Below are positions 2,492-20,210 of a stretch of 64,000 nucleotides of DNA, in pieces. The notes under the pieces are model-generated. The model ran no database searches, was not told the origin of the DNA, and saw only the letters and a program-made list of their open reading frames with translations. Each line of letters begins with the position of its first letter. Positions within the stretch are counted from its first letter, which is position 1. The position numbers and the translations under genes were made by a program. The stretch covers positions 448,001-512,000 of the forward strand of contig RDOB01000002.1 of assembly GCA_011364965.1 (NCBI GenBank), given 5' to 3'. Origin of the DNA: Candidatus Heimdallarchaeota archaeon (GTDB taxonomy: Archaea; Asgardarchaeota; Heimdallarchaeia; Hodarchaeales; Hodarchaeaceae).

Positions 2492-2609
2492 GTTACAGAA
2501 AAGTAATCAAAAACTAAATATCAGCTTCTGAGGTTTATTTCATTTGCTTCTATGCAATCTTAACTTAAATTGATACGTTTCTATAGAATGTTGAAATATA
2601 GCCTCATTA

Positions 2610-3286
2610 TTGGAAACTGATTTACTTGGAGCTATAGTACTTTTACTAGTCGGAATAATAGTTTTTGTGCTCATTTTATTGCTCTTTAGAGAGTATATGA
2701 CGACAAAGAAACCTTATCATATGATATGGTATATTAGTTTTTTTTGTCTGTTTTATTTGTCTCTGGTGTGTTAATTATACTCTTTGGTTAGGGAGACACC
2801 TTCGGGAATCCTCTCGTCTCTCCAATCGCAGCCTTAATACATGCTGGAATAGCAATAGGTCTTGTATATGCTGTTAGGCCTGATATGAAATACGGGTTAT
2901 TCTATGCTGTTTATTGCATTGTTTTAATCGGATTATTAGCTGTTATGAAATATAATATCTTATTGTCTAGAATGACCTCAGTTACACTAATGACAGTGCA
3001 TATTCCATCGGGATTAATTATCTCATTTCTTCCCCTATATACAGCATTCTTAACAAAAGAAACAGAATGAATAAAAGCTTTTTTCAGAATTGGAGAATTA
3101 CTAATATCTTTCAGTGGTGTTTAATTAGCTATTACTATTGTTGTGACTAGAAATGTGGATCCTCTATTATTTATTTTTGATATTCTCCCCTACCTACTTT
3201 TAGTGGTTGGAATGCCATTCGTTTTGAGATTAGGGTTACCATCTAAATGGAAAATCGGTATACCAGTAATTAGCGGGCTATTTTAA
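2610..3286 (+). pseudogene. Degraded multi-pass membrane protein gene
   Basis: Hydrophobic reading runs from LETDLLGAIVLLLVG to PSKWKIGIPVISGLF*. It is broken by a frame change near the T run at about 2738-2746 and by in-frame stops TAG 2789, TGA 3068 and TAA 3122. Confidence 0.75.
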
Positions 3287-4029: not shown

Positions 4030-4045
4030 GTTACTTTTGAGTAAC
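4030..4045. promoter_or_regulatory. Inverted repeat GTTAC-N6-GTAAC, candidate operator (copy 1)
   Basis: GTTACTTTTGAGTAAC lies in the divergent HxlR/cytochrome intergenic region. Confidence 0.6.
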
Positions 4046-4102: not shown

Positions 4103-4122
4103 CAGTTACGATACTGTAACTG
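4103..4122. promoter_or_regulatory. Inverted repeat CAGTTAC-N6-GTAACTG, candidate operator (copy 2)
   Basis: CAGTTACGATACTGTAACTG has the same core and spacing as copy 1, offset by 75 bp. Confidence 0.6.
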
Positions 4123-4155: not shown

Positions 4156-5754
4156 ATGAATAATAATGAAGAAGAAATATTAATGCGCCAGAGTAAGTGG
4201 AGCGGTCGTAGAGTCATATTACTCTACTGGTTAGCAATTGTTTTCGTTGGGACAAGCACTGCTGCAGGTCTTGGTGTAACAATTCTCAAGCCGACATATA
4301 AAATAGCAGCAGAAGATCCTCATGCCGGAATTACAGAACCCTGGTATCCAGAAGATTGCATTGCTTGCCACCCTGACGAAGTTGCAGGCTGGAACACCAC
4401 TTGGCACGCGCAAATAGTCGGAGAATATGATCCGTTAGATCCGTTATTGAACGGAAGTAAGGTATCATTTAATAGTACACATTATTGGCGAACTCCAAAT
4501 ACATTACCACCACCATCAACCATTACATATTGGACTTACAATCAGCTATTCAACGCCTCTGGACAACAGTGCTGTATGACAACACGATGGTACAATGTTA
4601 CTCTTATAAACGCGACCACTGGAGAAGTCTTATATTTCAATACTACTCTATCTGCTGAACTTGGAGGCTATACAAGCAACATTTGGGACATTGGCGTTTC
4701 TTGTGCAGCATGTCATCCGAACCCTGGAGAAATCAGTCTGAGTCATACCTATTGTGCAAGTTGTCACTTAGCTGGTGGAAATCAAGGGTTACACTATACG
4801 CGAAGTGGTCACTATAACGCTCTAAACGACCTATTGGCGAGTACTGATCTCACGACACAAGTATTATTGCATTATACTGGATACTGGTATTATATTGGTC
4901 AGAGTACTTACATGCAAGTTAGCGATCTTGAAACAGGTGAATATTATCGCATTACTTGCGTTACTTGTCATGATCCACACGATTCAACAGTTAATGCAGG
5001 TGATGTGTCAAATAAAATGAGTCCATGGACAAACCCTTATACAGGAGAAACCTTTGGACCAGGTGGAAGCCAACTACGAGCAGCTACTGTCAATGAACTC
5101 TGTGGTATTTGTCATCATATCAATCTCAATACTAGTACAGGAGCATTCCTAGATCCAAGCAATCATACTGCATTAAGCTGTACTAATTGTCACGGTTACT
5201 CGTACACTCCAGCTACCAATACGACTGGTGCACTAGTTCACAGTTGGGTATTTGGTGGACCCGAACCCGGAGATGCTTGTGGTGTATGCCATTATGAAAA
5301 TGCTTCCACTGTTTATGCTCAGATGCTTGCATATCTAGACCAATTTGGTGATGTTGCCACTTTGAGAGCTGAATATGAAACTAAGTTAGCAGCTGCCGAA
5401 TTAGCATACAACACAGCTAATACAACAGAAGGAGCTGATGCTGCGAAGCTAGCTAACGCTTATGCTTTGATTGAAGAAGCTAAAGAATTAGCTGAACGTT
5501 CTGCTCTAACTTTCCACAATCCTGAATTAGGTACAGCTGTTGAGGAATCGCAGTTATCGCTAGCATTAACAAAACTAGATGAAGCAACAACAGAAGCTTT
5601 GGAAGCTCTTCCAACTACGACCACAACTACGACCACAACTACAACTGCTGCAACCACCACCACCACTACTACTGCTGCAACATCCGCAATTGGTTTAGTT
5701 GCTGTAATGAGCATCTTAAGTGTTGTAATAGTATTCCGAAGGAAACGACGTTAG
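4156..5754 (+). CDS. Surface-anchored multiheme cytochrome c (7 CxxCH)
   Basis: CIACH, CAACH, CASCH, CVTCH, CGICH, CTNCH, CGVCH. Also an N-terminal hydrophobic signal, a helical stalk, a poly-Thr linker and a C-terminal TM followed by RRKRR. Confidence 0.93.
   Translation: MNNNEEEILMRQSKWSGRRVILLYWLAIVFVGTSTAAGLGVTILKPTYKIAAEDPHAGITEPWYPEDCIACHPDEVAGWNTTWHAQIVGEYDPLDPLLNGSKVSFNSTHYWRTPNTLPPPSTITYWTYNQLFNASGQQCCMTTRWYNVTLINATTGEVLYFNTTLSAELGGYTSNIWDIGVSCAACHPNPGEISLSHTYCASCHLAGGNQGLHYTRSGHYNALNDLLASTDLTTQVLLHYTGYWYYIGQSTYMQVSDLETGEYYRITCVTCHDPHDSTVNAGDVSNKMSPWTNPYTGETFGPGGSQLRAATVNELCGICHHINLNTSTGAFLDPSNHTALSCTNCHGYSYTPATNTTGALVHSWVFGGPEPGDACGVCHYENASTVYAQMLAYLDQFGDVATLRAEYETKLAAAELAYNTANTTEGADAAKLANAYALIEEAKELAERSALTFHNPELGTAVEESQLSLALTKLDEATTEALEALPTTTTTTTTTTTAATTTTTTTAATSAIGLVAVMSILSVVIVFRRKRR
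5614..5682 (+). repeat. ACN-codon low-complexity repeat encoding a poly-Thr linker
   Basis: actacgaccacaactacgaccacaact... encodes TTTTTTTTTTTAATTTTTTTAAT. Confidence 0.7.
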
Positions 5755-6037: not shown

Positions 6038-8242
6038 ATGATTCACACTATCGTAAAACATTTAGAAGTTAAAAGACCTATAAAATATTCCTTTCTTGCG
6101 TTAATATTAATCACTTTTTTTTTAGTAAATAATGCACATATTTTACCACAGCAATTTCTAAATGAAAATCTACCTAACCAGAAAAATTATAAGATAAACG
6201 TTGAAACAGAGCAAAAAAATTTTGAAGATCTTTGTTTAAGTAGACTAACTCGAGCAAGTGATTCTGATGTAATTTTTCCTACCTTTCTTTATCTCTCGAT
6301 CGAAATTGCAAATCTTCTTATTGAGAATTTATATGATAATGTATCGAATGGATTCTATTTTTCTATTGATGAAGAATGGCGAGAGGTTACTATTAATTCT
6401 GAAAAACGAACCTATGATAATGCTCAAGCAATATTAGGGTTGTTAAAACTTGCTGAAGCTGTTATTAATCAGACTGAAAGTGATTTTGCGCTAAATATTG
6501 CGGAAAGTACAGCTAATGGCTTACTTAATAATTTATGGGATCCAGATTTTGACGGTTTCTTTATTAGTCCATCAGATAGATATAAAAAGCCAGGGATTCA
6601 TGGAAAAGCCATTCAAGCTTTTTTAGCATTATATGAGGAAACAGGAATCTCTTCTTATCGTGAAACAGCAATTGATACATTGAATTTTATTGATAGAGTA
6701 GCTTGGAATGACTCTGAAGGTTATTATATTTATGTGACATCACACACTGGGTTACCTCTGATCGTGAATCCATATCAAGGGGATCCATATGAACCCCAAT
6801 CTCTCCGAGTAGATCATAATTCAATCATGGGAATTGCATTGCTCGATTTTTATCGTATAGATACCAATTCAACATATTTAACAAAAGCCTGCCGGATCTA
6901 TGATATTATTAATGAAACATGTAGGAATAGCACTACGAATTTATTTTATACAGGTGTGGATAGTCACCATGAAATAGTTTATCCAGAGGCGTCAGACCTC
7001 TTCATTAATTCTCTTGTTCTGGAATTTCTAGCTCAACTCTACAATGTAACAGAGGATCAGAAGTATTATGAGGACTTTTTTATTTTATTGAATACTGTAT
7101 TACTCAATTTCTGGGATAATGATTATGGAGGTTTCATATCTACACGTTCTTCGGGTAATTTTAGCTCCGATGATAGAACTAAATTTACAGAAAGGCAATT
7201 TTACGGAATTGAAGCACTTGATAAAGCTTATAAGCTCACAAATAACGATCTATATTATAATCTTATTTTAGATACGATCGAAATTCTCAATACAAATCTT
7301 TATGACCAAATTAATGGTGGATACTACCAATTAGCAAATCCAGACGGATCCCAAAGCGGTGATGCAACGTGGAAAATGAAAGTAACTGTTACTCAATCAT
7401 TAGGTATTTATACATTAGCAAATATCTGGTTGTATAGCAAACCAAGTGCCCTAAATGTTATTTGGTCACCAACTACTCCACGTCCCCAAGATAAAGTTTC
7501 TCTATTAATTGCAGCTTTTGATCCAGTAGGTATTTCAACAGTCTTTCTGAATTACTCTATTGATGGAAGTAATTTTAAATTATTAGAAATGGTTCCACAT
7601 CTCGTTAAAAACATGTTTATATGTAATATTGACCCTCCATATAAAGATGGAACATCTATAAACTTTAATATTATTATTACCAACGCCAATGATGAACAAG
7701 TTATTAGAGGTGATTACTCCTTCCTCTGGCAATTTGATAGATGGCCTCCTGAGGTTCAAGTGCTTGGATTTTTACCTGGAATAGAAATACCAGTAAACGA
7801 AGAATTTACAATTATTGTTACTGCAAATGATATCCCCTCTCAAGGAAGTGTTAGATATGTTCGTATCCATTATTATCTTACTGAACGCGACGTTAAAAAC
7901 GTACTTCTTAACCAATTTGACGTACATTTATGGAAAATAACCTTTCCTGAGGGGCTTCCTATACCCGGAACTTATACCTATTATTTCGAGTCATCAGATT
8001 TAGAATGGAACCCTAGTTTTAGCCATGTAGATACCTTTACTATTTTAGGAAGCTTAGAGGTTCCGTTCCCTCTATCACAAGTTGTATTTTTCTTACTTTT
8101 TATCGGTGTATTTGTCCCTACTGGATTGTATTCCTATGTTGAATATAAGAAAAAGAGTGCACGGAAGAAATTAAAGGTTATACGTGAAGTTCGTAACAAG
8201 AAAATGAGAAGATTGAATAAGCGTGGTACGAAAAGAACTTAA
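6038..8242 (+). CDS. Membrane-anchored extracellular (alpha/alpha)6-barrel protein (AGE/GH76/YyaL-like) with C-terminal Ig-like domains
   Basis: Repeated LYD/LWD..xGGF/Y units, EKRTYDNAQAILGLL, N-terminal signal, C-terminal TM and basic tail. Confidence 0.65.
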   Translation: MIHTIVKHLEVKRPIKYSFLALILITFFLVNNAHILPQQFLNENLPNQKNYKINVETEQKNFEDLCLSRLTRASDSDVIFPTFLYLSIEIANLLIENLYDNVSNGFYFSIDEEWREVTINSEKRTYDNAQAILGLLKLAEAVINQTESDFALNIAESTANGLLNNLWDPDFDGFFISPSDRYKKPGIHGKAIQAFLALYEETGISSYRETAIDTLNFIDRVAWNDSEGYYIYVTSHTGLPLIVNPYQGDPYEPQSLRVDHNSIMGIALLDFYRIDTNSTYLTKACRIYDIINETCRNSTTNLFYTGVDSHHEIVYPEASDLFINSLVLEFLAQLYNVTEDQKYYEDFFILLNTVLLNFWDNDYGGFISTRSSGNFSSDDRTKFTERQFYGIEALDKAYKLTNNDLYYNLILDTIEILNTNLYDQINGGYYQLANPDGSQSGDATWKMKVTVTQSLGIYTLANIWLYSKPSALNVIWSPTTPRPQDKVSLLIAAFDPVGISTVFLNYSIDGSNFKLLEMVPHLVKNMFICNIDPPYKDGTSINFNIIITNANDEQVIRGDYSFLWQFDRWPPEVQVLGFLPGIEIPVNEEFTIIVTANDIPSQGSVRYVRIHYYLTERDVKNVLLNQFDVHLWKITFPEGLPIPGTYTYYFESSDLEWNPSFSHVDTFTILGSLEVPFPLSQVVFFLLFIGVFVPTGLYSYVEYKKKSARKKLKVIREVRNKKMRRLNKRGTKRT

Positions 8243-8261
8243 GTAATAAGGAGATAATGAC

Positions 8262-10472
8262 GTGTTTTACATTGGTTTTGGAATAGATTTAGGAGCAATT
8301 ATTCTTATTGTAGCATTTCTAGCTTTATTATTGGATGCATTTTTTGTATTAGCCGGGAAATACCTAGAGAAGTGGGAGATTTATTCGGAAATTAGTCTGT
8401 TGATAGGAGCTTCAGCACTCCTCATTTCTTTTTTCTATTTTGCTTTTTTAATTGTAACCACAGATTTCAATTTTTATTTTGTAAGCGAATATGTGAATAG
8501 CAGAATGGATTTTTTCCTCCGATTGTCAACAATTTGGAGTAGTCAACCTGGGAGTTATTTCTTTTGGGCATTTTTAATTTCTATTATCTATTTCAGCTTT
8601 CGAATACTCTTTAGACAATTCGCACATGAAGCCATTTTTTGGCGTAGCTTCGTCTTAGCTGCCCTCCACTTAGCTTTACTTGTTTTTTTAACAATAATTA
8701 ATGATCCTTTTAAATTAAATAAGGAAGTACCTTTAGATGGACTTGGATTGAATCCTTTATTGATGAATATCTGGAATGTAATTCATCCACCAATTATTTT
8801 CATAAGTTATGCTCTTTGTTTGCTCCCTATGGTTATTGCGATCGCTAGGCTTTCCGTTCTTGAAGATGGTAAAGTACCAGAATTTGAAGGTAAAGAAAAA
8901 CTTGATGGATTCTTTGATTTCACAGTCTCGTTAGCTTGGCTTGCTTTGAGTATAGGTATTATTCTTGGGGCCTATTGGGCCTATATCACTCTTGGTTGGG
9001 GAGGATTCTGGGCTTGGGATCCTGTTGAGACTGCTTCATTAATACCTTGGCTTTTCATAACTTTTTATTTCCATGGCAAACCATTTTTCCGGAAAAAAGA
9101 TTTTCTAAGCAATTATTTAGTAAGTATGGGTTATATTGGAACCTTATTTACTACCTACTTAACACGAAGTGGTGTGGTATCAAGTGTCCATGCTTTTGTA
9201 CCTAGTGGTACTCTAGAAAAGATTCTATCTATGTTTATTCCTAAAGATTTCTTCTTAATGAGTATTATTCTCAGAATCATCCCAGACGAAAAGGTACTTT
9301 TCATCTTTGGAGGTGTAATGATAACGTTCCTTCTTCCTCTTATTCTAGGAATTAAAAATAGAGAAATTTTTAGAATCCCAATTGAGTTGAGTAAAGAGGA
9401 CTTTACAGCTTCCCGTCATCAGACAACCGCATTAAAAATATCTTTTATATCAGGTTTAATAGGTACTTATATAATCCTATTAGGATTAATAGCACCAGTG
9501 ATTTATGACCTTTTAGGTTATATAATTACTTTGAGTTCGAAGGGAATCTCTCCAAGCATTACTATAAGCCAACCTTTCTACAATACTGTAATCACCATTT
9601 TTGGCGGGGTTATGTTAATTGCTCAGTTTTTCTGTACATTTTATCCAAAGATCGCTATTAGACGAAAGTTTCAATTATTAATAGGTGGAGTTGTTGCAGG
9701 GATTTTATTTGCAATTAGTGGCATTCTATATCATAATGGTGTTCTTGCGTCAATGTTAGGGGGAAATAATCCAATTATTACCATTTTAGGTGAATTTTGG
9801 ACAACTAGTATCAAAGCTAATTTAGTATTACCTCTCATGTTTCTAGGGATAGTAGGATTAATTATAGAATTTATAAATATAATATTAAAAGATGAAAAAA
9901 ACCTTCTTCGAAAATCATCTCAAACAATGTTGCATTTATCTTTCTTAATAATTCTTGTTGGCGCATTAGTTGCTGCCAACACATCTTTTACAACAAATAT
10001 AACAGTTCAAAATGGTACAGATATGGAAATATCTGGGACAACATTGAGGATCGAAGTTATAAATCTTAGAAAAACAGTACCAGAGTCTGGTTTACATGCC
10101 ATAGATTATGATACAGAGTTCATTATCTCTTCAGGAGGTCGTGTATTGGGATATGGTATTAGTAGACTCTATGTGGATCATTTTAATCGTGTAGGGCATC
10201 AAGTGACAATAATTAGTAGTTTTCTTAGTGACATTTACATCATAACAATGAATGTTGCAGAGAATCCCATATATGGGACGTTCGATTTTTCTGCTCTTCA
10301 GATAAAAATTATTCCATATGTAAATTTACTTTGGATTGGGTGTTTCTTGCTTATCTTTGCGATTTTTCCTTTAACAATTGGCAAGTTTCTTTCCCTGAAG
10401 GAGATTTTCAAAATTGAGGAAGAAATAACCGATGAGACTTTAAATAAAGGTGATAAGGATGATCAAAACTAG
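8262..10472 (+). CDS. ccmF: Cytochrome c biogenesis heme lyase CcmF
   Basis: GLNPLL, IHPP, WGGFWAWDPVETASLIPW, LTRSG.VSSVHAF, and LHLSF. Confidence 0.95.
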   Translation: MFYIGFGIDLGAIILIVAFLALLLDAFFVLAGKYLEKWEIYSEISLLIGASALLISFFYFAFLIVTTDFNFYFVSEYVNSRMDFFLRLSTIWSSQPGSYFFWAFLISIIYFSFRILFRQFAHEAIFWRSFVLAALHLALLVFLTIINDPFKLNKEVPLDGLGLNPLLMNIWNVIHPPIIFISYALCLLPMVIAIARLSVLEDGKVPEFEGKEKLDGFFDFTVSLAWLALSIGIILGAYWAYITLGWGGFWAWDPVETASLIPWLFITFYFHGKPFFRKKDFLSNYLVSMGYIGTLFTTYLTRSGVVSSVHAFVPSGTLEKILSMFIPKDFFLMSIILRIIPDEKVLFIFGGVMITFLLPLILGIKNREIFRIPIELSKEDFTASRHQTTALKISFISGLIGTYIILLGLIAPVIYDLLGYIITLSSKGISPSITISQPFYNTVITIFGGVMLIAQFFCTFYPKIAIRRKFQLLIGGVVAGILFAISGILYHNGVLASMLGGNNPIITILGEFWTTSIKANLVLPLMFLGIVGLIIEFINIILKDEKNLLRKSSQTMLHLSFLIILVGALVAANTSFTTNITVQNGTDMEISGTTLRIEVINLRKTVPESGLHAIDYDTEFIISSGGRVLGYGISRLYVDHFNRVGHQVTIISSFLSDIYIITMNVAENPIYGTFDFSALQIKIIPYVNLLWIGCFLLIFAIFPLTIGKFLSLKEIFKIEEEITDETLNKGDKDDQN

Positions 10473-10881
10473 AAATTTGCTTATCTCTGGATTGATTATT
10501 TCTGTATGTGTATTCGCATTATTTTTTCTGTTATTCAATACTTCTATCCCAATATTTACTGTGAAAGAGTTAATAGACCATCCTAGACCTGAATCATTAT
10601 TAAATCATAAAATTCAATTAATAGGTATTGTGGGAACAATAGATACTTCAGGATTTTTACTATACGATCCTGAAGATCAAACTAATGCAACTTTGATTAT
10701 TTACATTGAAGCTATAAATGTTACTAAACCCGGAGGATTCGTGATCGGAAAAACCATTCTTGTTGAAGGACAACTAACATCTATTTCTGGGGTATGGACT
10801 TTAAAGGCCTCTATGATCAGTACTAAATGTCCCTCAAAATATGATGGAGGAGCTGAAATAGGAGAAGAAATTGATGGCTAG
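10459..10881 (+). CDS. ccmE: Heme chaperone CcmE, CxxxY type
   Basis: N-terminal TM, OB-fold-like core and TKCPSKY motif; located in the ccm cluster. Confidence 0.88.
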   Translation: MIKTRNLLISGLIISVCVFALFFLLFNTSIPIFTVKELIDHPRPESLLNHKIQLIGIVGTIDTSGFLLYDPEDQTNATLIIYIEAINVTKPGGFVIGKTILVEGQLTSISGVWTLKASMISTKCPSKYDGGAEIGEEIDG

Positions 10882-11554
10882 TAGATTAAAAGAAAATCCA
10901 TTTTGGATATTTTTGCTTTTTCTATCGTGTTTAATGATTATAAACTTCTTTTTAGTATATATCTCGATAAAATCATTTCAAGGATTTACTGTATCAGGAC
11001 GTCCAATCTTTTACATGGTTTCTTTTGCTTTTTCTACATATGTTTGTTTTGGAATTGTATTATTAAGTAGCATTCTTTATTTGTGGAAAAAAAGTTTTCT
11101 TTTTGATCTTTTAGTTGTTGCTGGAGCACAAGTGGGTGTAGTTACGGGAGCTATAACAATTTTAGTAGGAATGATTTGGTCATATGTCGAATGGGGGTAC
11201 TTCTGGCAATGGGAGCCAAGACAAACAACAACGTTAATAATGTGGATGGCTTATATAGGATTACTTATATTTCGTGAGATGCTTGATGAAAATTATCCTG
11301 AAAAACGAGGGACATTAACATCAATATTTGGAATTGTAAGCTTTCCATCTGTACCTTTATCAAACTACGTGGTTGGTGCTTTACACCCTCCTCCACAACA
11401 AACAACATTAGAAGAAGGATTAGGAATGCTTTTAATGTTGAATTTTCTTTTAATTGGTGCAATTTGCGTATTACTGGTATATCTAACCTATAGGACAAAT
11501 GAAATAGACTTTAAACTTAAAAAAATTCGAAAAATAAAAATGGAGGCGTTTTAA
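10874..11554 (+). CDS. ccmC: Heme exporter CcmC
   Basis: WWD-type motif GMIWSYVEWGYFWQWEPRQT and LHP; about 6 TMs. Confidence 0.92.
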   Translation: MASRLKENPFWIFLLFLSCLMIINFFLVYISIKSFQGFTVSGRPIFYMVSFAFSTYVCFGIVLLSSILYLWKKSFLFDLLVVAGAQVGVVTGAITILVGMIWSYVEWGYFWQWEPRQTTTLIMWMAYIGLLIFREMLDENYPEKRGTLTSIFGIVSFPSVPLSNYVVGALHPPPQQTTLEEGLGMLLMLNFLLIGAICVLLVYLTYRTNEIDFKLKKIRKIKMEAF

Positions 11555-11586
11555 TAATTTTTTTTAAATAGCAAGGAGTTGTTATT

Positions 11587-11742
11587 ATGGCAAATTTCAT
11601 TGATGAACTATTAGGATCTGAATTAAACTTGATGTTTTTTATCTCAATAACTGTTTGGATAATATTATTTTTATATCTATATTATATACACAATAAGTTA
11701 GGATCACTGAAAAAAGAATTAAGCAGTTTGAAAGATGATTGA
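11587..11742 (+). CDS. ccmD: CcmD-like small membrane protein (51 aa, not in the ORF track)
   Basis: MANFIDELLGSELNLMFFISITVWIILFLYLYYIHNKLGSLKKELSSLKDD: a single TM plus charged tail, AAGGAG upstream, directly after ccmC. Confidence 0.75.
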   Translation: MANFIDELLGSELNLMFFISITVWIILFLYLYYIHNKLGSLKKELSSLKDD

Positions 11743-11823
11743 TAGAGGAATTTTAAGTTATTTATTAACATATAGTATTTAATTAACTATTTACTGAGAA
11801 CACAGAGGAGATGATTATAAACT

Positions 11824-12525
11824 TTGAATACTCCTCCCAGACCTGTCGTTAGACTCACTAATATTTCGAAAACATATGGTTTCGTTCAAGCCTTGAAAAA
11901 TATAAACTTAGATATCAATCAAGGGGAAATTGTAGGTTTGGTGGGAAATAATGGAGCTGGGAAGAGCACACTTCTGAAAATAATTGCTCTACTAGTAAAA
12001 CCCGCAGAAGGAATAATTGAGCTTTTTAATAGGCAAGTTGATGACGAGATTCACTCTTTCAAGAAGAATTTAGGGATCCTGTTAAATTCTCCTTTTTTTT
12101 ATGAGGATTTAACTGGTCGTGAAAATTTTCATTTTTTCCTGCGAATGAAAAAACAAGTAAAGCATCCCCAAAAAGTAGTTCAGGATATTATTGATCAATA
12201 TGGATTGAAATTATTCATAGACCGTCCTTATTACGAGTTATCAACTGGGATGATGAAAAAATTGGAGATTTTAAGAACTATATCCCCAGATTTTCCTTTA
12301 CTACTTCTTTTAGATGAACCCTTTAGCGGATTAGATACTGAAAATAAGAAATTCCTCTCAAATTTAATTACCAATAAAGGATCAAAAAATACTGTGATTC
12401 TTTGTTCACATGATTTTAACATCGTAAATAACCTTTGTAGTAAAATTGTATTACTTGAAAGAGGGAAAATTAAGAAAATTTTCATGCCAACAGAATATAA
12501 TCACCTTCTAGCTCATTTTACTTAA
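11824..12525 (+). CDS. ccmA: ABC ATPase CcmA
   Basis: GNNGAGKST Walker A, LSTGM signature, LLLDEPFSGLD; lies between ccmD and ccmB. Confidence 0.85.
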   Translation: MNTPPRPVVRLTNISKTYGFVQALKNINLDINQGEIVGLVGNNGAGKSTLLKIIALLVKPAEGIIELFNRQVDDEIHSFKKNLGILLNSPFFYEDLTGRENFHFFLRMKKQVKHPQKVVQDIIDQYGLKLFIDRPYYELSTGMMKKLEILRTISPDFPLLLLLDEPFSGLDTENKKFLSNLITNKGSKNTVILCSHDFNIVNNLCSKIVLLERGKIKKIFMPTEYNHLLAHFT

Positions 12526-12546
12526 TTTTGAGAGGGAAAAACGAAT

Positions 12547-13227
12547 ATGATAAGTGATATATTGATTTTAGTCCGAAAAGATGTGTTATTAGAATTTAGA
12601 AAAAGAGAAACCATTTATTCGATGGGTTTATTTACCTTTTCTTCAATCCTAATTTTTTCTGCTTTATTAAATTTTATAGATGCTCCTTTAGAAACAAAAA
12701 ATGGAATATCCATTACTTGTCTATTATTTATTATAACTTTCTCTGTGATGCTTGGACTTACTTCAATATTCTCTCGCGAAATTAAGAATAATTCGATTTA
12801 TCGTCTCCTTTCATTATCTATTAAACCTCAAGTAATATTTTTGTCGAAATTTGTATATTTATTTTTAATGACAGGTTTTATTGAGATCTTTGCTTTTATT
12901 TTAGCAATTATATTTTTAAAAATAGACTTTCAAGTTAATATTTTAGTATATTTCATTTTTCTGACGATAGGTACCTTAGATCTAACTATTGCAGGATGTA
13001 TTGTAGCTTTTTTGACATTATATGCTAAATCAAAATCATTAGCTGTTCCTATCTTATTCTTTCCTTTGGTCCTTCCATCAGTTCTTATTGAAACACAGGT
13101 TTCGTTGAATATGGTTTTAATGAATGATATAAATTATATGATAACAAATTTATTGATTCTTTTTTTTCATGGAGTAATAATACTTGCTTTCGTATTACTG
13201 GTAGCTGAAGAGCTTATTCAAGACTAA
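12547..13227 (+). CDS. ccmB: Heme exporter permease CcmB
   Basis: RKDVLLEFRKRE N-terminus, FSRE, PILFFPLVLP; 6 TMs. Confidence 0.9.
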   Translation: MISDILILVRKDVLLEFRKRETIYSMGLFTFSSILIFSALLNFIDAPLETKNGISITCLLFIITFSVMLGLTSIFSREIKNNSIYRLLSLSIKPQVIFLSKFVYLFLMTGFIEIFAFILAIIFLKIDFQVNILVYFIFLTIGTLDLTIAGCIVAFLTLYAKSKSLAVPILFFPLVLPSVLIETQVSLNMVLMNDINYMITNLLILFFHGVIILAFVLLVAEELIQD

Positions 13228-14260: not shown

Positions 14261-14756
14261 ATCTTGCTCACCTTTTTCGGAATTCTTAGAATAGATAGTA
14301 AAATTCTATTGAATTGAAAAATATTCTTTATATATACATTTGGGTGTCCAAGAATAGAGTAAGAATTTTAATAGCAAGTAATAAAAAAGTAAGGATTTTT
14401 TGTTTAGCAATTAATAGGATATTTTTTTATTAAATACAAAAATACTGGCGTATAACTATCATTAGGAAAAAACTATAACATAAGGAGATTTAGTCTCCTT
14501 AGAGCCTAGATAAGCATAATTGATCTAAGTTTTAAAGGTAAGATATATTTTTAATTCTTCTTCTATTACCTTACTTTTTAGTTAGTTGCTTCCTAAATAG
14601 ATATTTAACTCCAGATCAACCAAATATATATAAAACATTCATACCTGATGTTGTAGCATTCTTCTTAGAAAAAATTTACGAAATTAATATTAAATAAACG
14701 AGTAAAAAAGAAACCTGAGCTTTTTGATATATAATATAACTAAAGGATGGTTTAGT

Positions 14757-15488
14757 ATGAATTTCATAGGTGGATTTAAAAAAAGTAAGATCAGTATAAA
14801 AATTCTATATATTTTAATCGGTGCTGCTATAGCAATTGGTATTGTAAGCGGAATTGGAAGTACCTGTACTACATTCGATCCTATTTGGTGGAGAAATCCA
14901 TCATTTTCAATTATTGGAGATTTACAAATTATCTTCATTATAGCTTATATTGCCACTTGGTTTACAGCAATTTTATGGATAGTTTTAATTTGGGCTTTAT
15001 CAGGTGGGAAAGATTGGTTTTACAAGATAGCTCTCTCAAATAGCGTTATTGGAATCTTGGGCGGCGCAATTCCTGTGGGAATCCTATTATACGAATATTG
15101 GGCAAGTTATGGCAATTCTGGCATGAGATTTACTCCTTCATGGTTTCGAACTATAATAAATTTGGTTTTATTTATTGTCCTTGTGATTCCAAAAATACGA
15201 ACTGAAATCCAAAATACCATCAAAAGTAATAGTTCAGCTATAGGAGGTTCTTCAGATTTAGGAACAGGATTAGCCCAATTGGCGTTTATTTTATTTGGTT
15301 TTGGAGTTGTTATGATACTACAGCCATTCATCATGCCTGCAACACATATCATTGATGGAGTAAACGTAGGATATGACTTTGAAGCGCTTCAATTCTATTG
15401 TGGTTTATTTTCTATTGTCCTTGGATTAATAACCCGGATCTCAGAACGCATTTATTCAAAAATTCAGTCTAGCAGAGTTATCTACTAA
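14757..15488 (+). CDS. Hypothetical multi-pass membrane protein
   Basis: About 6 hydrophobic segments; first gene of an apparent operon with 15504 and ctaB. Confidence 0.7.
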   Translation: MNFIGGFKKSKISIKILYILIGAAIAIGIVSGIGSTCTTFDPIWWRNPSFSIIGDLQIIFIIAYIATWFTAILWIVLIWALSGGKDWFYKIALSNSVIGILGGAIPVGILLYEYWASYGNSGMRFTPSWFRTIINLVLFIVLVIPKIRTEIQNTIKSNSSAIGGSSDLGTGLAQLAFILFGFGVVMILQPFIMPATHIIDGVNVGYDFEALQFYCGLFSIVLGLITRISERIYSKIQSSRVIY

Positions 15489-15503
15489 ATAAGAGGTATA
15501 ATT

Positions 15504-17138
15504 ATGAATTCAATCGAGATGAATGTAACTAAAGATGGTAAATGGAATTGGTTGAAATATAAGCTATTCTATGGCGGAACTTTCAAAGGAATGATCACCT
15601 TCACTATTGTATATTTATTTGTGATCACCCTCTTTCTTTCAACTTTTTCTAAACCAGTCGTGGACCTTCTTGGAGCACCATTACTACCATTTTACTTTAG
15701 TGGCTCTACTGAAGATTTAATGGCGTTTTCTGCCCGTGTTGTGCTATTGTATCATGCAATAACGGTGCCTTTCCTTGCAATTTGTACATACTTTGTATTA
15801 GAGTACTGCGATGTCCGAGAAAAATTAAAATCCCGAATTAAATGGCCATTATTTTTCGGAAGTCTTTTAGCATCAGGAGCTGGAATGTTATATGCTTACT
15901 TTTTCACTGAAGCTTGGATAATACACGGTTTATACCTAGTAGGATTATCACTCTGTTTTTATGCAGGTGTTATCCTCCTTATTGCTGTCTTTCCGTCCAA
16001 AAATTTTCCTAAGAATTGGACTAAACAAGAAAATAAAAATAATATTTTATTTGAGCAATTAGCTTTAGTAACGATAACTATTTGTATCTTAGTGACAGTA
16101 TTTCTTGGAGCAGCAATCGGAGCTTATTTTGGCGTTGATGAGATGTCTGCATTCTTAGCAGAATATTTCCTTCGAGATCCTATAACAGAGCTTCCTTATC
16201 CCTATTTGGTCGCAGATCTCTTTGTAGATGGGATTAAAGGCCACTTACATGCAATGTTGGGTCAAATCGATGTTGTCATCCTCCTTGTGGTATTCAGATA
16301 TACAATGGGTGATATGCCTAAAGGAAAATGGCATCTGCTAGCTATGATTCTAGCGATTCCTGGGGCTTTTTTTATGTCATTGGGTTGTTGGTTTGTTACC
16401 TTCAAATCTGTCGTTCCAATAGTCACATTTGGAATTTTACAGGAATGGCCATTTGATATGCACTACTTAATCTATGTCGGAGCAGCAATTCTCGTCACTG
16501 TAGGCGCGATGTTGGCCCTTATGGGTTGGAATAAAATCGCTAGGAAAGAACTGGGTGATGCTTATGAATCAGCTACTTGGGGTACCCGTATAAAAGTAAT
16601 ATTCAAAGATCCTGTTAAATTTACTCTCTATTTCCTATTCTTATGGGTAAATATCGTGATGACATTTAGTGGTATCTTCCTAGCATTAAGTCTATATGAT
16701 GAATCTGTGCTAGCTAGAGTTCTTCCATTTTTGTCGTTCCGATCGGGTCCTCTTGCAGTTGAAACTACTGTTGCTCGTGGTCACTGGCACATTTTAGGAG
16801 CTTTATCAGCTGTTATATTATTCTTACTCTTCGTTGATATTCTTCGTATAGAAGGTAAGACACGTAAGGTAATGGGATGGCTAATGCTGGCAGGAAGTAT
16901 TTTCGCTTTCCTTTCTGGAATGCTTTATCTCTATGTTCCCCACCTTGATCAGAATTGGGCAAATAATCACGAGTTGTACGTTGACGTGCAGGAATTCTGG
17001 CAAGTGAATGCTCCATGGCTACCCCTCCTTTTAGATTTTGGAATACTTCTTATTGGCATAGCACTTGTCATCTTCTGCTTCTATGAATTGATTCAAATCA
17101 TCAACGGAAGACGAGATATCCATGCATTTCCCGAATGA
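15504..17138 (+). CDS. His-rich polytopic membrane protein, possible divergent heme-copper-oxidase-fold heme protein
   Basis: About 13 TMs with intramembrane His motifs LYHAIT, IIHGLY, GHLHAM, DMHY and GHWHIL; stop overlaps the ctaB start. Confidence 0.55.
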   Translation: MNSIEMNVTKDGKWNWLKYKLFYGGTFKGMITFTIVYLFVITLFLSTFSKPVVDLLGAPLLPFYFSGSTEDLMAFSARVVLLYHAITVPFLAICTYFVLEYCDVREKLKSRIKWPLFFGSLLASGAGMLYAYFFTEAWIIHGLYLVGLSLCFYAGVILLIAVFPSKNFPKNWTKQENKNNILFEQLALVTITICILVTVFLGAAIGAYFGVDEMSAFLAEYFLRDPITELPYPYLVADLFVDGIKGHLHAMLGQIDVVILLVVFRYTMGDMPKGKWHLLAMILAIPGAFFMSLGCWFVTFKSVVPIVTFGILQEWPFDMHYLIYVGAAILVTVGAMLALMGWNKIARKELGDAYESATWGTRIKVIFKDPVKFTLYFLFLWVNIVMTFSGIFLALSLYDESVLARVLPFLSFRSGPLAVETTVARGHWHILGALSAVILFLLFVDILRIEGKTRKVMGWLMLAGSIFAFLSGMLYLYVPHLDQNWANNHELYVDVQEFWQVNAPWLPLLLDFGILLIGIALVIFCFYELIQIINGRRDIHAFPE

Positions 17139-18100
17139 TTAATAAAATCGTAAAGGATGCCGAAATGACAACAATTAATGGGGATAATGCAAATAACAAA
17201 AGATCCCCTTTTCTTTTTTTATCTTTTCAAATGTATTTGCATTTGATAAAGGCTAAACAAACAATTTTATTAGTCTATACAACAGTTTTTGCATATCTGA
17301 TAACTGCTTTACAATTCACATTCGATATTTTTACATTTTTATGGGTTTTTATCTCCGTTACATTAGCTGTATCGGGGAGTACCTTGTTTAATATGTATAT
17401 TGATCGTGATATTGATGCTATTATGGAAAGAACACAAAATCGACCTCTTCCCAGTGGAAAAATTGCTCCATCCACAGTTCTAAAGCATGGTTTCTTTTTT
17501 ATTGGAGCAGGTCTTATATTCTCTTTGTTGTATCTTAATATTTTGACAACATTTGTGATTTTTCTAGGATTTTTTTTTGATGTTATTATCTATTCCCTAA
17601 TTCTCAAAAGAAGAACCAAATATTCCATAATATTTGGAGGTATTGCTGGAGGTTTACCTGCGTTAGCTGGAAGGACAGCTGTTATAAATAGTGTTGATTT
17701 AATTGGTATTTTGCTCGGGTTATTTGTAGTAGCATGGATTCCATTACACATTCTCACTTTAGCTCTTCTACCAATAAATTTGAGAGATTATACAAAAGCA
17801 AAAATACCAATGTGGCCTGTTGCAAGTGGTGAAAGACAAACAATCCGAATAATTACTTTATCAGCAATCATTTCAGCCATTTTAACCATTATTACTGGAT
17901 TTTTATTAGAGATTGAATTAATATGGTTAATTCCATTACTTTTTTTTGGTTCATATATTCTAGCTATTGCTCTAAGAAATCTTTCATCGCCTACTACTCC
18001 TAGAACATTTAAACTCTTTAAAGCAGCATCAATTTATATGGCTCTTACGTTTGTCTTATTATTTATTGGCTTACTAATAACCATTGCTCCATATAGATAA
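17135..18100 (+). CDS. ctaB: Protoheme IX farnesyltransferase (heme O synthase)
   Basis: NMYIDRDIDAIMERTQNRPLPSG, LKRRT, GGIAGGLP, WIPLH, DY.KAKIPM. Confidence 0.95.
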   Translation: MINKIVKDAEMTTINGDNANNKRSPFLFLSFQMYLHLIKAKQTILLVYTTVFAYLITALQFTFDIFTFLWVFISVTLAVSGSTLFNMYIDRDIDAIMERTQNRPLPSGKIAPSTVLKHGFFFIGAGLIFSLLYLNILTTFVIFLGFFFDVIIYSLILKRRTKYSIIFGGIAGGLPALAGRTAVINSVDLIGILLGLFVVAWIPLHILTLALLPINLRDYTKAKIPMWPVASGERQTIRIITLSAIISAILTIITGFLLEIELIWLIPLLFFGSYILAIALRNLSSPTTPRTFKLFKAASIYMALTFVLLFIGLLITIAPYR

Positions 18101-18226: not shown

Positions 18227-18739
18227 TCAAGATATGACAATAAATCTTACGTCATATTTTCTTTCTTCAATTGTTAGAAGAACTATCGTATTCTCTTTAG
18301 AAAATTTTTTATCAGTAGGAGATCCAGGATTGATTATTTGAATTTTTTGTTTTTCTCCAACACGAAATGCCTCTGGTTTATGAGTATGTCCACAGATTAT
18401 AATATCTAGATTCTTAAAATTTTTAAAGATGTTTAATATTCTATCATAGAATCCCTCTGGACCTCCATAACCGTGAGTAATCCCAATTGTTAATTCTTCA
18501 ACACGAAGAGTATCAATTGCGGGATATTTAGAGCGAACATCTGAATTACACATATTTCCATGTACAGCTCTGACTGGCGCGATTTCCTGCAGGTCATTGA
18601 TAAAAGATAAATCCTCAAAATCCCCTGCATGTATAATCAATGAAACATGTGCATCTTTGAATGTTGAAATAACTTCGGATGGCAATAAGCTTCCTGTTCT
18701 AGGAATGTGTGTATCTGATAATATACCAATGGTTTGCAT
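18227..18739 (-). CDS. YfcE/MJ0936/Vps29 family metallophosphoesterase
   Basis: SDTH, HAGD, GNM, THG, GHTH and NPGS motifs. Confidence 0.92.
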   Translation of the reverse strand: MQTIGILSDTHIPRTGSLLPSEVISTFKDAHVSLIIHAGDFEDLSFINDLQEIAPVRAVHGNMCNSDVRSKYPAIDTLRVEELTIGITHGYGGPEGFYDRILNIFKNFKNLDIIICGHTHKPEAFRVGEKQKIQIINPGSPTDKKFSKENTIVLLTIEERKYDVRFIVIS

Positions 18740-18758
18740 TTGATAGAATCCTCGTTTT

Positions 18759-20210
18759 TTATCCGAATACAAGCGATTTTATAACAACTGGAAAAACTCG
18801 ATCTTCTACAATTGGTTCCCCAATATCGATAAAATCTCCTTCTTTAAGCGAGATTTCATCAATTGATATAACATTATTTGTAATTCCTGTTTCTCTTATC
18901 AAAACATTTCCAACACTATTACCACAATCTGTATCGAACACTAATATTATTGTTTTATTCTTAGCAATGGTTTTTGGTAAAGCGGATACAATACCTTTGC
19001 CAAAGATCGCTAATTTATCATAAACCGTCCGTACTGGATCATGGAATGCTAATGCAATAGTTTCATCGCCCTCAGTTATATCTAATCTTTGTAGACTGCT
19101 GATAATTTGTGTCTTAACATACTCAATTGATAAAGCTTCTCTATCGATTTGTGGGGTTACAATAGGCAGATTCCTGATGGGAAAAATTGATCTAGGTATC
19201 TTTTTTGACATAAAGGTAGTAGATCCTGAAACCTGCAAGGTATACTCACTTGCACCAATTACAGTTGCGCGGATTTTTTCTGGAGCTTCGATCAATGAGT
19301 AATTAGATTCAAACATTAAGGTCCTTATTGTTTGTCCAAGGTTTAAACCAATATCTTGATAATCCACTTTCGTCTTTTGATATATGTATTCTGCTACACC
19401 TCCAGAAAAACTCCAGTTATGATTTTTTTGTATATGTTCTTTTGGTATTAGAGGAGTCATCATTAATTTTTGTGTTATTTCAGAGATGTTCTTGTCACTT
19501 ATTACTTCTAATAATGAATCCGCTAATTTTCTGGCAATAATAGATTTCTGTTCCTCATTAATTGATTTACCTAATCCTGAATTAATGTTACATTCTTTTA
19601 AAATCATTTCACCAGCAGGTTCGAGGCGGGTTATAATATTATTATCATCAAAGGCAATTAAACGACCCCCAACATTTATACATGCTGTGGATAGAATTTG
19701 TCCATCGTTAATTACTGCAATATTGGATGTTCCCCCTCCAACATCAGTATGAATAACAAAACATTGATTTTCTTTTGAGTAGTTTACTGCGCCAGACCCA
19801 TATGCTGAAATTATTGCTTCAAAATTTGGTCCAGCAGTGCTTGCAACAAATTTTCCAGCTTCTTTAGCTAATTTGTTCACAATTTTCTCTGCATTTTCCT
19901 TTTTTGCTGACTCACCAGTTATTATACAGGCACCTGTATCAACATCTGTTACTTTAACTCCTGCATTTTCATATTCTTGTAAAAACTGTTGAATTAATCT
20001 GTCCACATCAATTTCGTTATTTAATCCCTTAAGTGGTGTAAAGAATATTGTACCACGATATTTAATTGTTCTTTCTGAGACAAAATATTTCTCTGTACGC
20101 GAGTTAGGATCCTTCCTCAATGTTAACTCTGAGAATATAAGATGGGAAGTACTTGTTCCAATATCTATTCCAACACTGGAGATTTTTTTCTCTATTGCTG
20201 CGAATCCCAT
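18759..20210 (-). CDS. eutA: EutA family reactivating factor
   Basis: SVGIDIGTSTSHLIFSEL, IITGESAKKENA, FVASTAGPNFE, DVGGGT, NVGGRL, IRATVIGA, PVVIKSLVF. Confidence 0.93.
   Translation of the reverse strand: MGFAAIEKKISSVGIDIGTSTSHLIFSELTLRKDPNSRTEKYFVSERTIKYRGTIFFTPLKGLNNEIDVDRLIQQFLQEYENAGVKVTDVDTGACIITGESAKKENAEKIVNKLAKEAGKFVASTAGPNFEAIISAYGSGAVNYSKENQCFVIHTDVGGGTSNIAVINDGQILSTACINVGGRLIAFDDNNIITRLEPAGEMILKECNINSGLGKSINEEQKSIIARKLADSLLEVISDKNISEITQKLMMTPLIPKEHIQKNHNWSFSGGVAEYIYQKTKVDYQDIGLNLGQTIRTLMFESNYSLIEAPEKIRATVIGASEYTLQVSGSTTFMSKKIPRSIFPIRNLPIVTPQIDREALSIEYVKTQIISSLQRLDITEGDETIALAFHDPVRTVYDKLAIFGKGIVSALPKTIAKNKTIILVFDTDCGNSVGNVLIRETGITNNVISIDEISLKEGDFIDIGEPIVEDRVFPVVIKSLVFG

Follow-up and report, generated by a model that had tools for sequence, protein, structure and literature searches.

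Why does an archaeon in which no ordinary oxidase can be recognised keep a haem O synthase, and which protein might receive its product? This question arises from a 64,000-nucleotide stretch of the genome of a Candidatus Heimdallarchaeota archaeon (GenBank assembly GCA_011364965.1, contig RDOB01000002.1, positions 448,001 to 512,000; hereafter the window, with a GC content of about 34%). Three plus-strand genes form there one co-directional unit. They encode a membrane protein of 243 amino acids (aa) that we call P2 (14757-15488), a 544-aa protein with 12 transmembrane helices (TM) and the predicted fold of subunit I of the haem-copper oxidases (HCO) that we call HCOL (15504-17138), and a 321-aa UbiA prenyltransferase of the CtaB/CyoE type, the haem O synthase or HOS (17135-18100). 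With a probability of about 0.55, we propose that HCOL represents a very divergent and undescribed family of the HCO superfamily, a haem-O membrane redox enzyme with a rebuilt active site, probably a non-pumping reductase. HCOL is widespread and forms a new variant of the oxidase superfamily; we take it as the probable mark of a membrane redox enzyme that depends on haem O and has not been described, and literature searches found no paper on the family.

To our knowledge, haem O serves only haem-copper oxidases or the synthesis of haem A, and we know of no use of haem O or A outside the HCO superfamily, apart from haem A in some archaeal complexes. A haem O synthase accompanied by an oxidase-fold protein without the classical copper ligands, in anaerobes, points to an undescribed class of haem-O enzyme; the organisms carrying HCOL are indeed strict or near-strict anaerobes, often without an ordinary oxidase. 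Haem A is also found in some archaeal quinol-oxidising complexes (PMC12808453). Biosynthesis of haem o has been ranked under O2-dependent enzymes and detected in all Heimdallarchaeia lineages (10.1101/2024.07.04.601786). HCOL affects the interpretation of this pathway in Asgard genomes: in the host genome, as in ten relatives, no client of the synthase is visible apart from HCOL, which is not a cytochrome oxidase of the COX type. Cultured Hodarchaeales have no discernible Cox donor, and uncharacterised proteins may fill such gaps (10.1101/2025.02.26.640444).

Haem O synthase and its visible client

The identification of the last gene of the unit as a haem O synthase, already made in a first-pass annotation of the window from its letters alone, was upheld by profile searches: 17135-18100 matched TIGR01473 (cyoE_ctaB) with 224.7 bits (cut-off 210.3), all other UbiA subfamily models remaining at or below 55 bits, and PF01040 with an E value of 1.2e-45. 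By these sequence criteria the gene is a haem O synthase, and it is the sole HOS-type gene (the only strong match) in the host assembly. The three-gene run and the overlap of the 544-aa gene with ctaB were likewise as annotated. The TGA of HCOL (17136-17138) and the ATG of HOS (17135-17137) overlap as ATGA, through which, judging from the sequence, HOS is translationally coupled to HCOL. P2 and HCOL are separated by 15 nt, with an AAGAGG-like site ahead of HCOL, and the start of P2 is supported by an identical database protein corresponding to 14757-15485.

The annotation had noted no oxidase subunit II or III and no ctaA nearby; this extends to the whole 2.97-Mb assembly (87% complete), in which we found no COX1, COX2, COX3, CtaA or cytochrome bd. 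In particular, PF00116 and PF00510 matched nowhere in the genome, and PF02628 (CtaA/Cox15) matched neither HCOL nor any other protein. HCOL is therefore the only visible client of the haem O synthase in this host. The same situation recurs in related organisms. Among 41 related genomes, HCOL occurs in 26 and COX1 in only 16, and a HOS-type gene directly adjoins HCOL in at least 20. Ten of these relatives, including two single-contig genomes and one that is 99% complete, have HCOL and HOS without COX1, and the genomes with a real COX1 carry a separate, second HOS beside it.

The family extends far beyond these archaea. A scan of species-representative genomes retrieved at least 584 HCOL relatives, from the Heimdall, Hod, Hermod, Thor and Odin lineages of the Asgard archaea and, among bacteria, from Chloroflexota, Aminicenantes, Bacillota (Symbiobacteriaceae and others), Ignavibacteriota, Calditrichota, Marinimicrobia, Bacteroidota, Chlorobiota and Spirochaetota. 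We scanned 80 public loci (19 Asgard, 61 other) with purpose-built profile hidden Markov models and counted HOS linkage in the 60 loci having at least 2.2 kb downstream of HCOL. A HOS-like gene stood beside HCOL in 57 of them (on the same strand and within 1.4 kb in 56), across Asgard archaea and about ten bacterial phyla, so that the ctaB linkage proposed as a check held among homologs. The bacterial HCOL-linked genes had TIGR01473 as their best model, with 204-236 bits, and in a closed Anaerolineaceae genome and a Spirochaetota genome, both without COX1, the single HOS is the HCOL-linked one. A maximum-likelihood tree of HOS sequences placed the window HOS among the HCOL-linked ones, which one branch separates from those linked to COX1 (support 79/92, 76% of bootstrap trees). 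The tree thus lends moderate support to two distinct lineages.

Some additional copies were seen in this context. Two related Heimdall-type genomes have extra synthases of the HCOL-linked lineage: one carries two paralogues about 20 kb upstream of HCOL (G010:C1:1572142-1597093) and the other a tandem pair directly after HCOL (G018:C13:26838-30473). A contig binned as Methanosarcinales (L072) contains a full bacterial-type operon, and its HOS nests among Anaerolineae sequences in the tree, which suggests gene transfer or a binning error.

Predicted fold and internal repeats of HCOL

HCOL was recognised by no sequence model. None of the Pfam or NCBIfam models matched it (a hit to Pfam PycTM, with E 0.86, was noise), the COX1 model PF00115 gave no match at E values up to 1, and whole-length profile-profile comparison with Asgard COX1 by hhalign detected no relation (probability 0.2%). 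One candidate relative from a profile search against PDB sequences, an Mrp antiporter subunit (E 0.0036), was at chance level and was discarded.

An AlphaFold2 model built on an alignment of 51 HCOL homologues (A1) showed 12 long helices with high scores (pLDDT 87.6, pTM 0.90). When it was exhaustively compared with 48,161 PDB representative chains using VIA-align, the top ten matches were all subunit I of HCO or nitric oxide reductases (NOR), with Z scores from 18.8 to 13.1, and the first unrelated chain reached Z 11. The scores were 18.8 for cNOR NorB, 18.6 for cbb3 CcoN, 17.0 for ba3, 15.9 for bo3 and 15.2 for qNOR, each HCO match aligning about 400-430 residues with 8-12% identity. Foldseek, which the first-pass annotation had proposed to combine with AlphaFold, also returned HCO as best matches (E 7.6e-3, TM score about 0.5) and not an unrelated fold. 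A shape search of the ESM-Atlas retrieved a cytochrome o oxidase subunit I (TM score 0.65), and a feature search, taken as a lead only, found unnamed clusters (0.88-0.90), one of them auto-named 'cytochrome oxidase subunit I profile domain'. VIA-align, Foldseek and the shape search agree on the subunit-I fold that had been suspected from the letters, and according to the model HCOL has the 12-TM core of HCO subunit I, made of three 4-helix repeats. Since profile searches and whole-length profile comparison find nothing, the relationship with HCO must be structural and very distant.

These results bear on two alternative explanations. The first is that HCOL is a cofactor-free membrane protein, a transporter or scaffold that resembles the oxidase fold, and that its adjacency to the synthase is conserved but functionally unrelated. 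The lack of any sequence family match would fit, all-helical membrane folds can converge, and one source named a relative of HCOL an MFS permease. We consider it highly improbable: subunit I of HCO accounts for each of the ten best structural matches, which align about 400-430 residues and rise well above background; seven membrane-buried histidines are conserved across two domains of life; and the synthase gene accompanies HCOL in 57 of 60 loci from about ten phyla. A plain transporter was rejected on these grounds.

The second is that HCOL handles or modifies haem O, whether by acting as haem A synthase does but independently of O2, by storing or chaperoning haem O, or by producing a new haem derivative, with the smaller proteins encoded nearby (P2, the membrane protein U200 and, in bacteria, a protein of FGE-sulfatase fold, all described below) as its helpers. 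CtaA/Cox15 is, like HCOL, a His-rich polytopic membrane protein often encoded beside a haem O synthase, and CtaA, an eight-helix bundle, binds haem O. Tight coupling to the synthase would be expected from such a protein, as would the lack of a recognisable haem O consumer downstream in genomes with HCOL; moreover, the small companions each have a single invariant His, a common trait of assembly factors, and ccm genes lie close by in Asgard archaea. Nevertheless, the fold of HCOL is that of subunit I and CtaA is not among the fold matches, there is no sequence match to CtaA/Cox15, in line with the absence of PF02628, and these genomes contain no haem-A-dependent enzyme to use the product; on these points the haem A synthase analogue was discarded. 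In addition, the haem-ligand histidines sit where oxidases hold permanent cofactors, and the FGE-fold partner lacks the two catalytic cysteines. A role in haem handling as a whole appears quite improbable to us.

Returning to HCOL as a divergent oxidase relative, we asked whether its sequence retains the threefold symmetry of the superfamily, which the annotation had suggested from three similarly placed His helices, VLLYHAIT, IKGHLHAM and ARGHWHIL, all present in the translation. The alignment A1 was cut into its three 4-helix repeats (R1, R2 and R3) and these were compared by hhalign, with 32 pairs of unrelated TM segments (COX1 thirds, P2, U200 and HOS) as controls, which scored 10.7-21.8. 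Two of the three pairs were clearly related, R1-R3 with 43.8 (E 1.7e-6) and R2-R3 with 44.1 (E 2.5e-6), while R1-R2 scored 17.4, at background level though in the same register. The proposed repeat is therefore borne out for two pairs and remains at background for the third. The alignments bring YH84, H247-L-H249 and H427-W-H429 into register, and likewise H141 with H320. The three thirds of COX1 in an Asgard COX1 alignment used as control did not detect each other in the same test, so that two of the three repeat pairs can be detected by sequence in HCOL and none in that COX1 alignment.

The same comparison provided one direct sequence link to COX1. R3 aligned with the third repeat of Asgard COX1 with a score of 28.5 (E 7.6e-4), the highest of all cross-family pairs, placing GHWH exactly on the GHFH haem-ligand motif of TM10; the match is weak but involves the correct repeat and register. 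The family may bear on the origin of the oxidase fold, with its sequence-detectable threefold symmetry and alternative set of histidines.

Conserved histidines and candidate cofactor sites

In oxidases, the TM2 His and the second His of the TM10 HxH motif ligate the low-spin haem, the first His of this motif ligates the active-site haem, and one TM6 His together with the HH pair of TM7 holds CuB or FeB. To see which of these persist in HCOL, we aligned 101 sequences to the family model, namely the 80 public loci and the most distant full-length matches from a search of 1.8 billion proteins. Four histidines were kept in 101/101 sequences: H84 in TM2 (helix 69-101), H247 in TM6, and H427 and H429 in TM10 (helix 417-446). 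Three more were nearly as constant: H249 in TM6 and H320 at the start of TM8 (98/101 each) and H141 at the start of TM4 (95/101). H249 and H320 were lost jointly, in the same three divergent sequences (P0255, P0263 and P0153). Further conserved residues were R78, Y83, Y132, E220, N383, R413 and E420. The annotation was right in reading two HxH motifs (247/249 and 427/429) and no HH pair in HCOL, and this holds for the family: no two adjacent columns of the 101-sequence alignment are both His-rich, the only TM7 His is H277 (62% conserved, at the inner end), and the HPxxY motif is absent, TM6 reading GHLHAM. At the level of helices in the model, HCOL thus matches the three haem ligands of HCO and has a TM6 His, and it lacks the TM7 pair. 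The three points on which the annotation had made its idea depend, namely a fold related to haem proteins, conserved histidines and linkage to ctaB, have thereby all been examined, and none came out against it.

HCOL shares with CcoN (PDB 3mk7_A) and NorB (PDB 4xyd_A) the predicted 12-TM fold (Z 18.6 and 18.8, with 413 and 404 residues aligned), the TM2 His, the TM10 HxH, a TM6 His and the absence of extra helices. It differs from them by the low identity (8-11%) and the failure of PF00115 to detect it, by an additional HxH on TM6 and conserved histidines where TM4 and TM8 begin, in place of the TM7 HH, by the absence of a cytochrome c or cupredoxin partner subunit, and by its tie to a haem O synthase, since CcoN and NorB have haem B in their active site and need no such enzyme. 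With the A/B-family oxidases, represented by bo3 CyoB (PDB 1fft_A/6wti_A) and ba3 (PDB 3eh3_A/1ehk_A), it has the fold in common (Z 15.9-17.0) and the GH[FW]H of TM10, which aligns between HCOL and Asgard COX1. These oxidases use farnesylated haem from CtaB/CyoE, and HCOL, which adjoins such a synthase, would use haem O; bo3 in addition takes quinol as donor without a CuA subunit. Unlike them, HCOL has no HPxxY or HH copper ligands, its host genome encodes no COX2 or COX3, and the synthase linked to it belongs to a separate lineage from the COX1-linked one.

From these correspondences, we propose that in HCOL a low-spin haem is held by H84 and H429 and another haem by H427. One or both would be haem O from the coupled synthase, most probably that on H427, by analogy with bo3 and aa3, in which the farnesylated haem occupies the active site. 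Opposite this second haem, a rebuilt site made from H247/H249 and H320, possibly with H141, would replace the three-His copper site. Because residues separated by two positions in a helix face opposite ways, H247 and H249 almost certainly belong to separate pockets, like H427 and H429. That H249 and H320 disappear from the same sequences is a hint that they contribute to a single site. The TM3-TM6 pore, empty in oxidases, could be lined by H141 and the remaining TM6 His; we reasoned these pore assignments from helix order and pseudo-symmetry.

The same residues can be read in another way, with HCOL as a non-catalytic di-haem cytochrome of HCO fold in which both haems are bis-His ligated (H84 with H429 and H427 with H247). 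It would work as a quinol dehydrogenase or as a lateral conduit on the outer face, feeding in Asgard archaea the neighbouring surface seven-haem cytochrome. In favour of this, exactly four histidines occur in all 101 sequences and the remaining ones are dispensable, HCOL does not have the canonical CuB ligands, MenA is present, and the gene shares its island with a multihaem cytochrome and a complete set of ccm genes, both in the window and in loci of Heimdall, Thor and Odin. However, the bacterial operons, which make up the majority of the family, contain no multihaem cytochrome or ccm genes and yet keep the synthase; no requirement for a farnesyl tail is known among bis-His haems that transfer electrons; and the conservation of H249, H320 and H141 in 95-98% of members suggests a further site. 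We therefore regard a purely electron-transferring di-haem protein as unlikely.

A bolder version of the divergent-oxidase reading, which we also think is probably wrong, is that HCOL is an ancient sister lineage of HCO that never had the copper site or lost it early, keeps a trace of the triplication that gave rise to the fold, and employs haem O in reactions under anaerobic or micro-oxic conditions, perhaps with H141 and one TM6 His forming a third cofactor site in the TM3-TM6 pore. If this were true, the oxidase fold and haem O would not be markers of aerobic respiration, and their presence in Asgard genomes would tell little about O2 use by the archaeal ancestor of eukaryotes.

Partner genes, possible role and genomic context

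The 14757 protein, P2, had been proposed as a partner of HCOL, and its homologues do recur beside HCOL in both domains: it is present in 12/19 Asgard and 19/61 other loci, and closes the bacterial operons (blastp against a small local database, 1e-7 to 1e-10). The protein, of about six helices, contains an invariant Cys (C37, at the end of TM1) and an invariant His (H197, in the hairpin after TM5) in our alignment A2, both predicted on the outer side by the positive-inside rule. It matched no Pfam or NCBIfam model, and its AlphaFold2 model (pLDDT 87.8) retrieved only generic helical bundles (Z 9.5 or less), so that no fold was assigned. A complex prediction with HCOL, P2 and two haems scored 0.00, uninformative either way on binding.

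A second small membrane protein, U200, with 6-7 TM and one invariant His, accompanies HCOL in 10/19 Asgard and 40/61 other loci. In the window it lies 12 kb upstream, on the plus strand (2595-3283), where tblastn with ten Asgard U200 sequences detected two collinear pieces in frames 1 and 3 (identity up to 65-68%), separated by a frameshift near 2750. The gene may have decayed to a pseudogene, the assembly may be in error here or, with less likelihood, the frameshift is programmed.

The typical bacterial order is a Crp/Fnr or TetR regulator, small membrane proteins, HCOL, a protein of FGE-sulfatase fold, HOS, U200 and P2. These operons are compact (five to seven genes) and could be expressed, which makes HCOL testable. 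The FGE-fold partner, absent from the window, was found in 53/61 non-Asgard loci. It carries a lipoprotein signal and is fused to HCOL through a 13th helix in two proteins (P0116, with 99.9 bits to PF03781, and L048), which places it on the outer face. It resembles exported PF03781 proteins of NirV/PvdO type; this family includes uncharacterised proteins implicated in nitrite reduction, such as NirV, and true FGE requires two active-site cysteines that hold copper (10.1101/2021.05.21.445229). In contrast with true FGE, 49 aligned partners lack these two cysteines and have only one Cys, in the motif GFRC, conserved at 93% or more. Two divergent HCOL proteins are instead fused to or preceded by a beta-propeller of PD40/Tricorn type (P0196, of 777 aa, and the P0255 contig).

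Several neighbouring genes bear on the possible role of HCOL. Regulators of the Crp/Fnr type occur in 25/61 bacterial loci, HxlR regulators lie directly upstream in Thor and Odin loci, and one Anaerolineae copy of HCOL has genes for hemerythrin, ferredoxin, AhpC and hybrid-cluster protein around it. The island that contains the unit in Asgard archaea also encodes a multihaem cytochrome, a surface protein of glycosidase fold, ccmFECAB and an HxlR regulator.

How might such a protein work? We propose that HCOL acts with P2 and U200 and, in bacteria, also with the outer-face FGE-fold lipoprotein. The least certain step is its role, which may be that of a non-pumping reductase taking electrons from menaquinol or from a donor on the outer face and passing them to a small oxidant present at low concentration, for instance O2 or NO, to protect otherwise anaerobic cells. 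Menaquinol is a possible donor because the host genome encodes MenA, as well as two NuoH-type genes. The positive-inside rule, as read from the sequence, places the haem-ligand residues towards the outer face, and the conserved charged residues R78, E220, R413 and E420 are all in outer-face loops. Together with the absence of evident conserved proton-channel residues on the inner side, this favours a non-pumping enzyme that would take protons from outside as in cNOR. The nearby Crp/Fnr and HxlR regulators, the locus with hemerythrin, AhpC and hybrid-cluster protein, and the anaerobic lineages of the hosts make scavenging of O2 or NO our best single guess, a tentative one that may well turn out to be wrong.

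A number of observations weigh against HCOL being such an enzyme. Because no sequence model recognises it as COX1, its homology depends on the predicted fold and one weak repeat alignment, and the assignment of its histidines to pockets is at the level of helices in the model. The canonical TM7 HH pair and HPxxY are absent. H247 and H249 are too closely spaced along their helix, with a separation of two residues, to chelate the same metal unless it is distorted, and the four invariant histidines fit equally well two six-coordinate haems without a catalytic site. Nonetheless, only the canonical TM7 HH ligands are missing, and H247/H249, H320 and H141 could still hold a metal. On the inner side no conserved residues of a proton channel are evident, and no electron-entry protein of subunit II type was found. 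The evidence for a role in stress comes from gene context and in part from single loci. Finally, some members have no adjacent HOS (L040, L041, L045, L066, L004 and L006); the neighbourhoods of L045 and L066 are uninformative, and the most divergent P0255 and P0153, which lack H249 and H320, are on short contigs with no synthase nearby.

In the window, the P2-HCOL-HOS unit is bounded upstream by a 496-nt intergenic region (14261-14756, assigned to no strand) that separates P2 from a divergent gene and presumably contains the promoter of the unit, and downstream by a convergent gene on the minus strand (18227-18772). A GTTAC-N6-GTAAC palindrome is present in a 15/16 copy at 2492-2507, ahead of U200, and in perfect copies at 4030-4045 and 4105-4120, between the hxlR and multihaem cytochrome genes (4 matches in the window against 0.95 expected); no such box, allowing up to one mismatch, occurs in 14261-14756. 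The multihaem c-type cytochrome (4156-5754) has Cytochrome_C7, MtrC/MtrF-like and C552 matches, and is followed at 6038-13227 by a GlcNAc-2-epimerase/GH76-like protein of 734 aa heading a ccmF-E-C-A-B set. This order of cytochrome, 734-aa protein and ccm genes recurs in Heimdall, Thor and Odin loci (L001, L002 and L007).

The divergent gene upstream of P2 (13319-14260, minus strand) encodes a 313-aa protein that weakly matches Big_7 (Ig-like) and is internally duplicated, a 197-aa Heimdall paralogue aligning to it twice; the host genome has three larger paralogues. It lies next to the unit in Heimdall (L001) and Odin (L007) loci, but overall was seen in only 3/19 of the Asgard loci scanned. 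Immediately downstream of HOS and convergent with it, 18227-20210 (minus strand) contains a gene for an EutA-family protein (452 bits) overlapping one for a Metallophos_2 phosphoesterase. Just upstream of the island, 73-2491 encodes molybdopterin-binding (MoCoBD_1/2) and [2Fe-2S] subunits of an enzyme of xanthine-dehydrogenase type.

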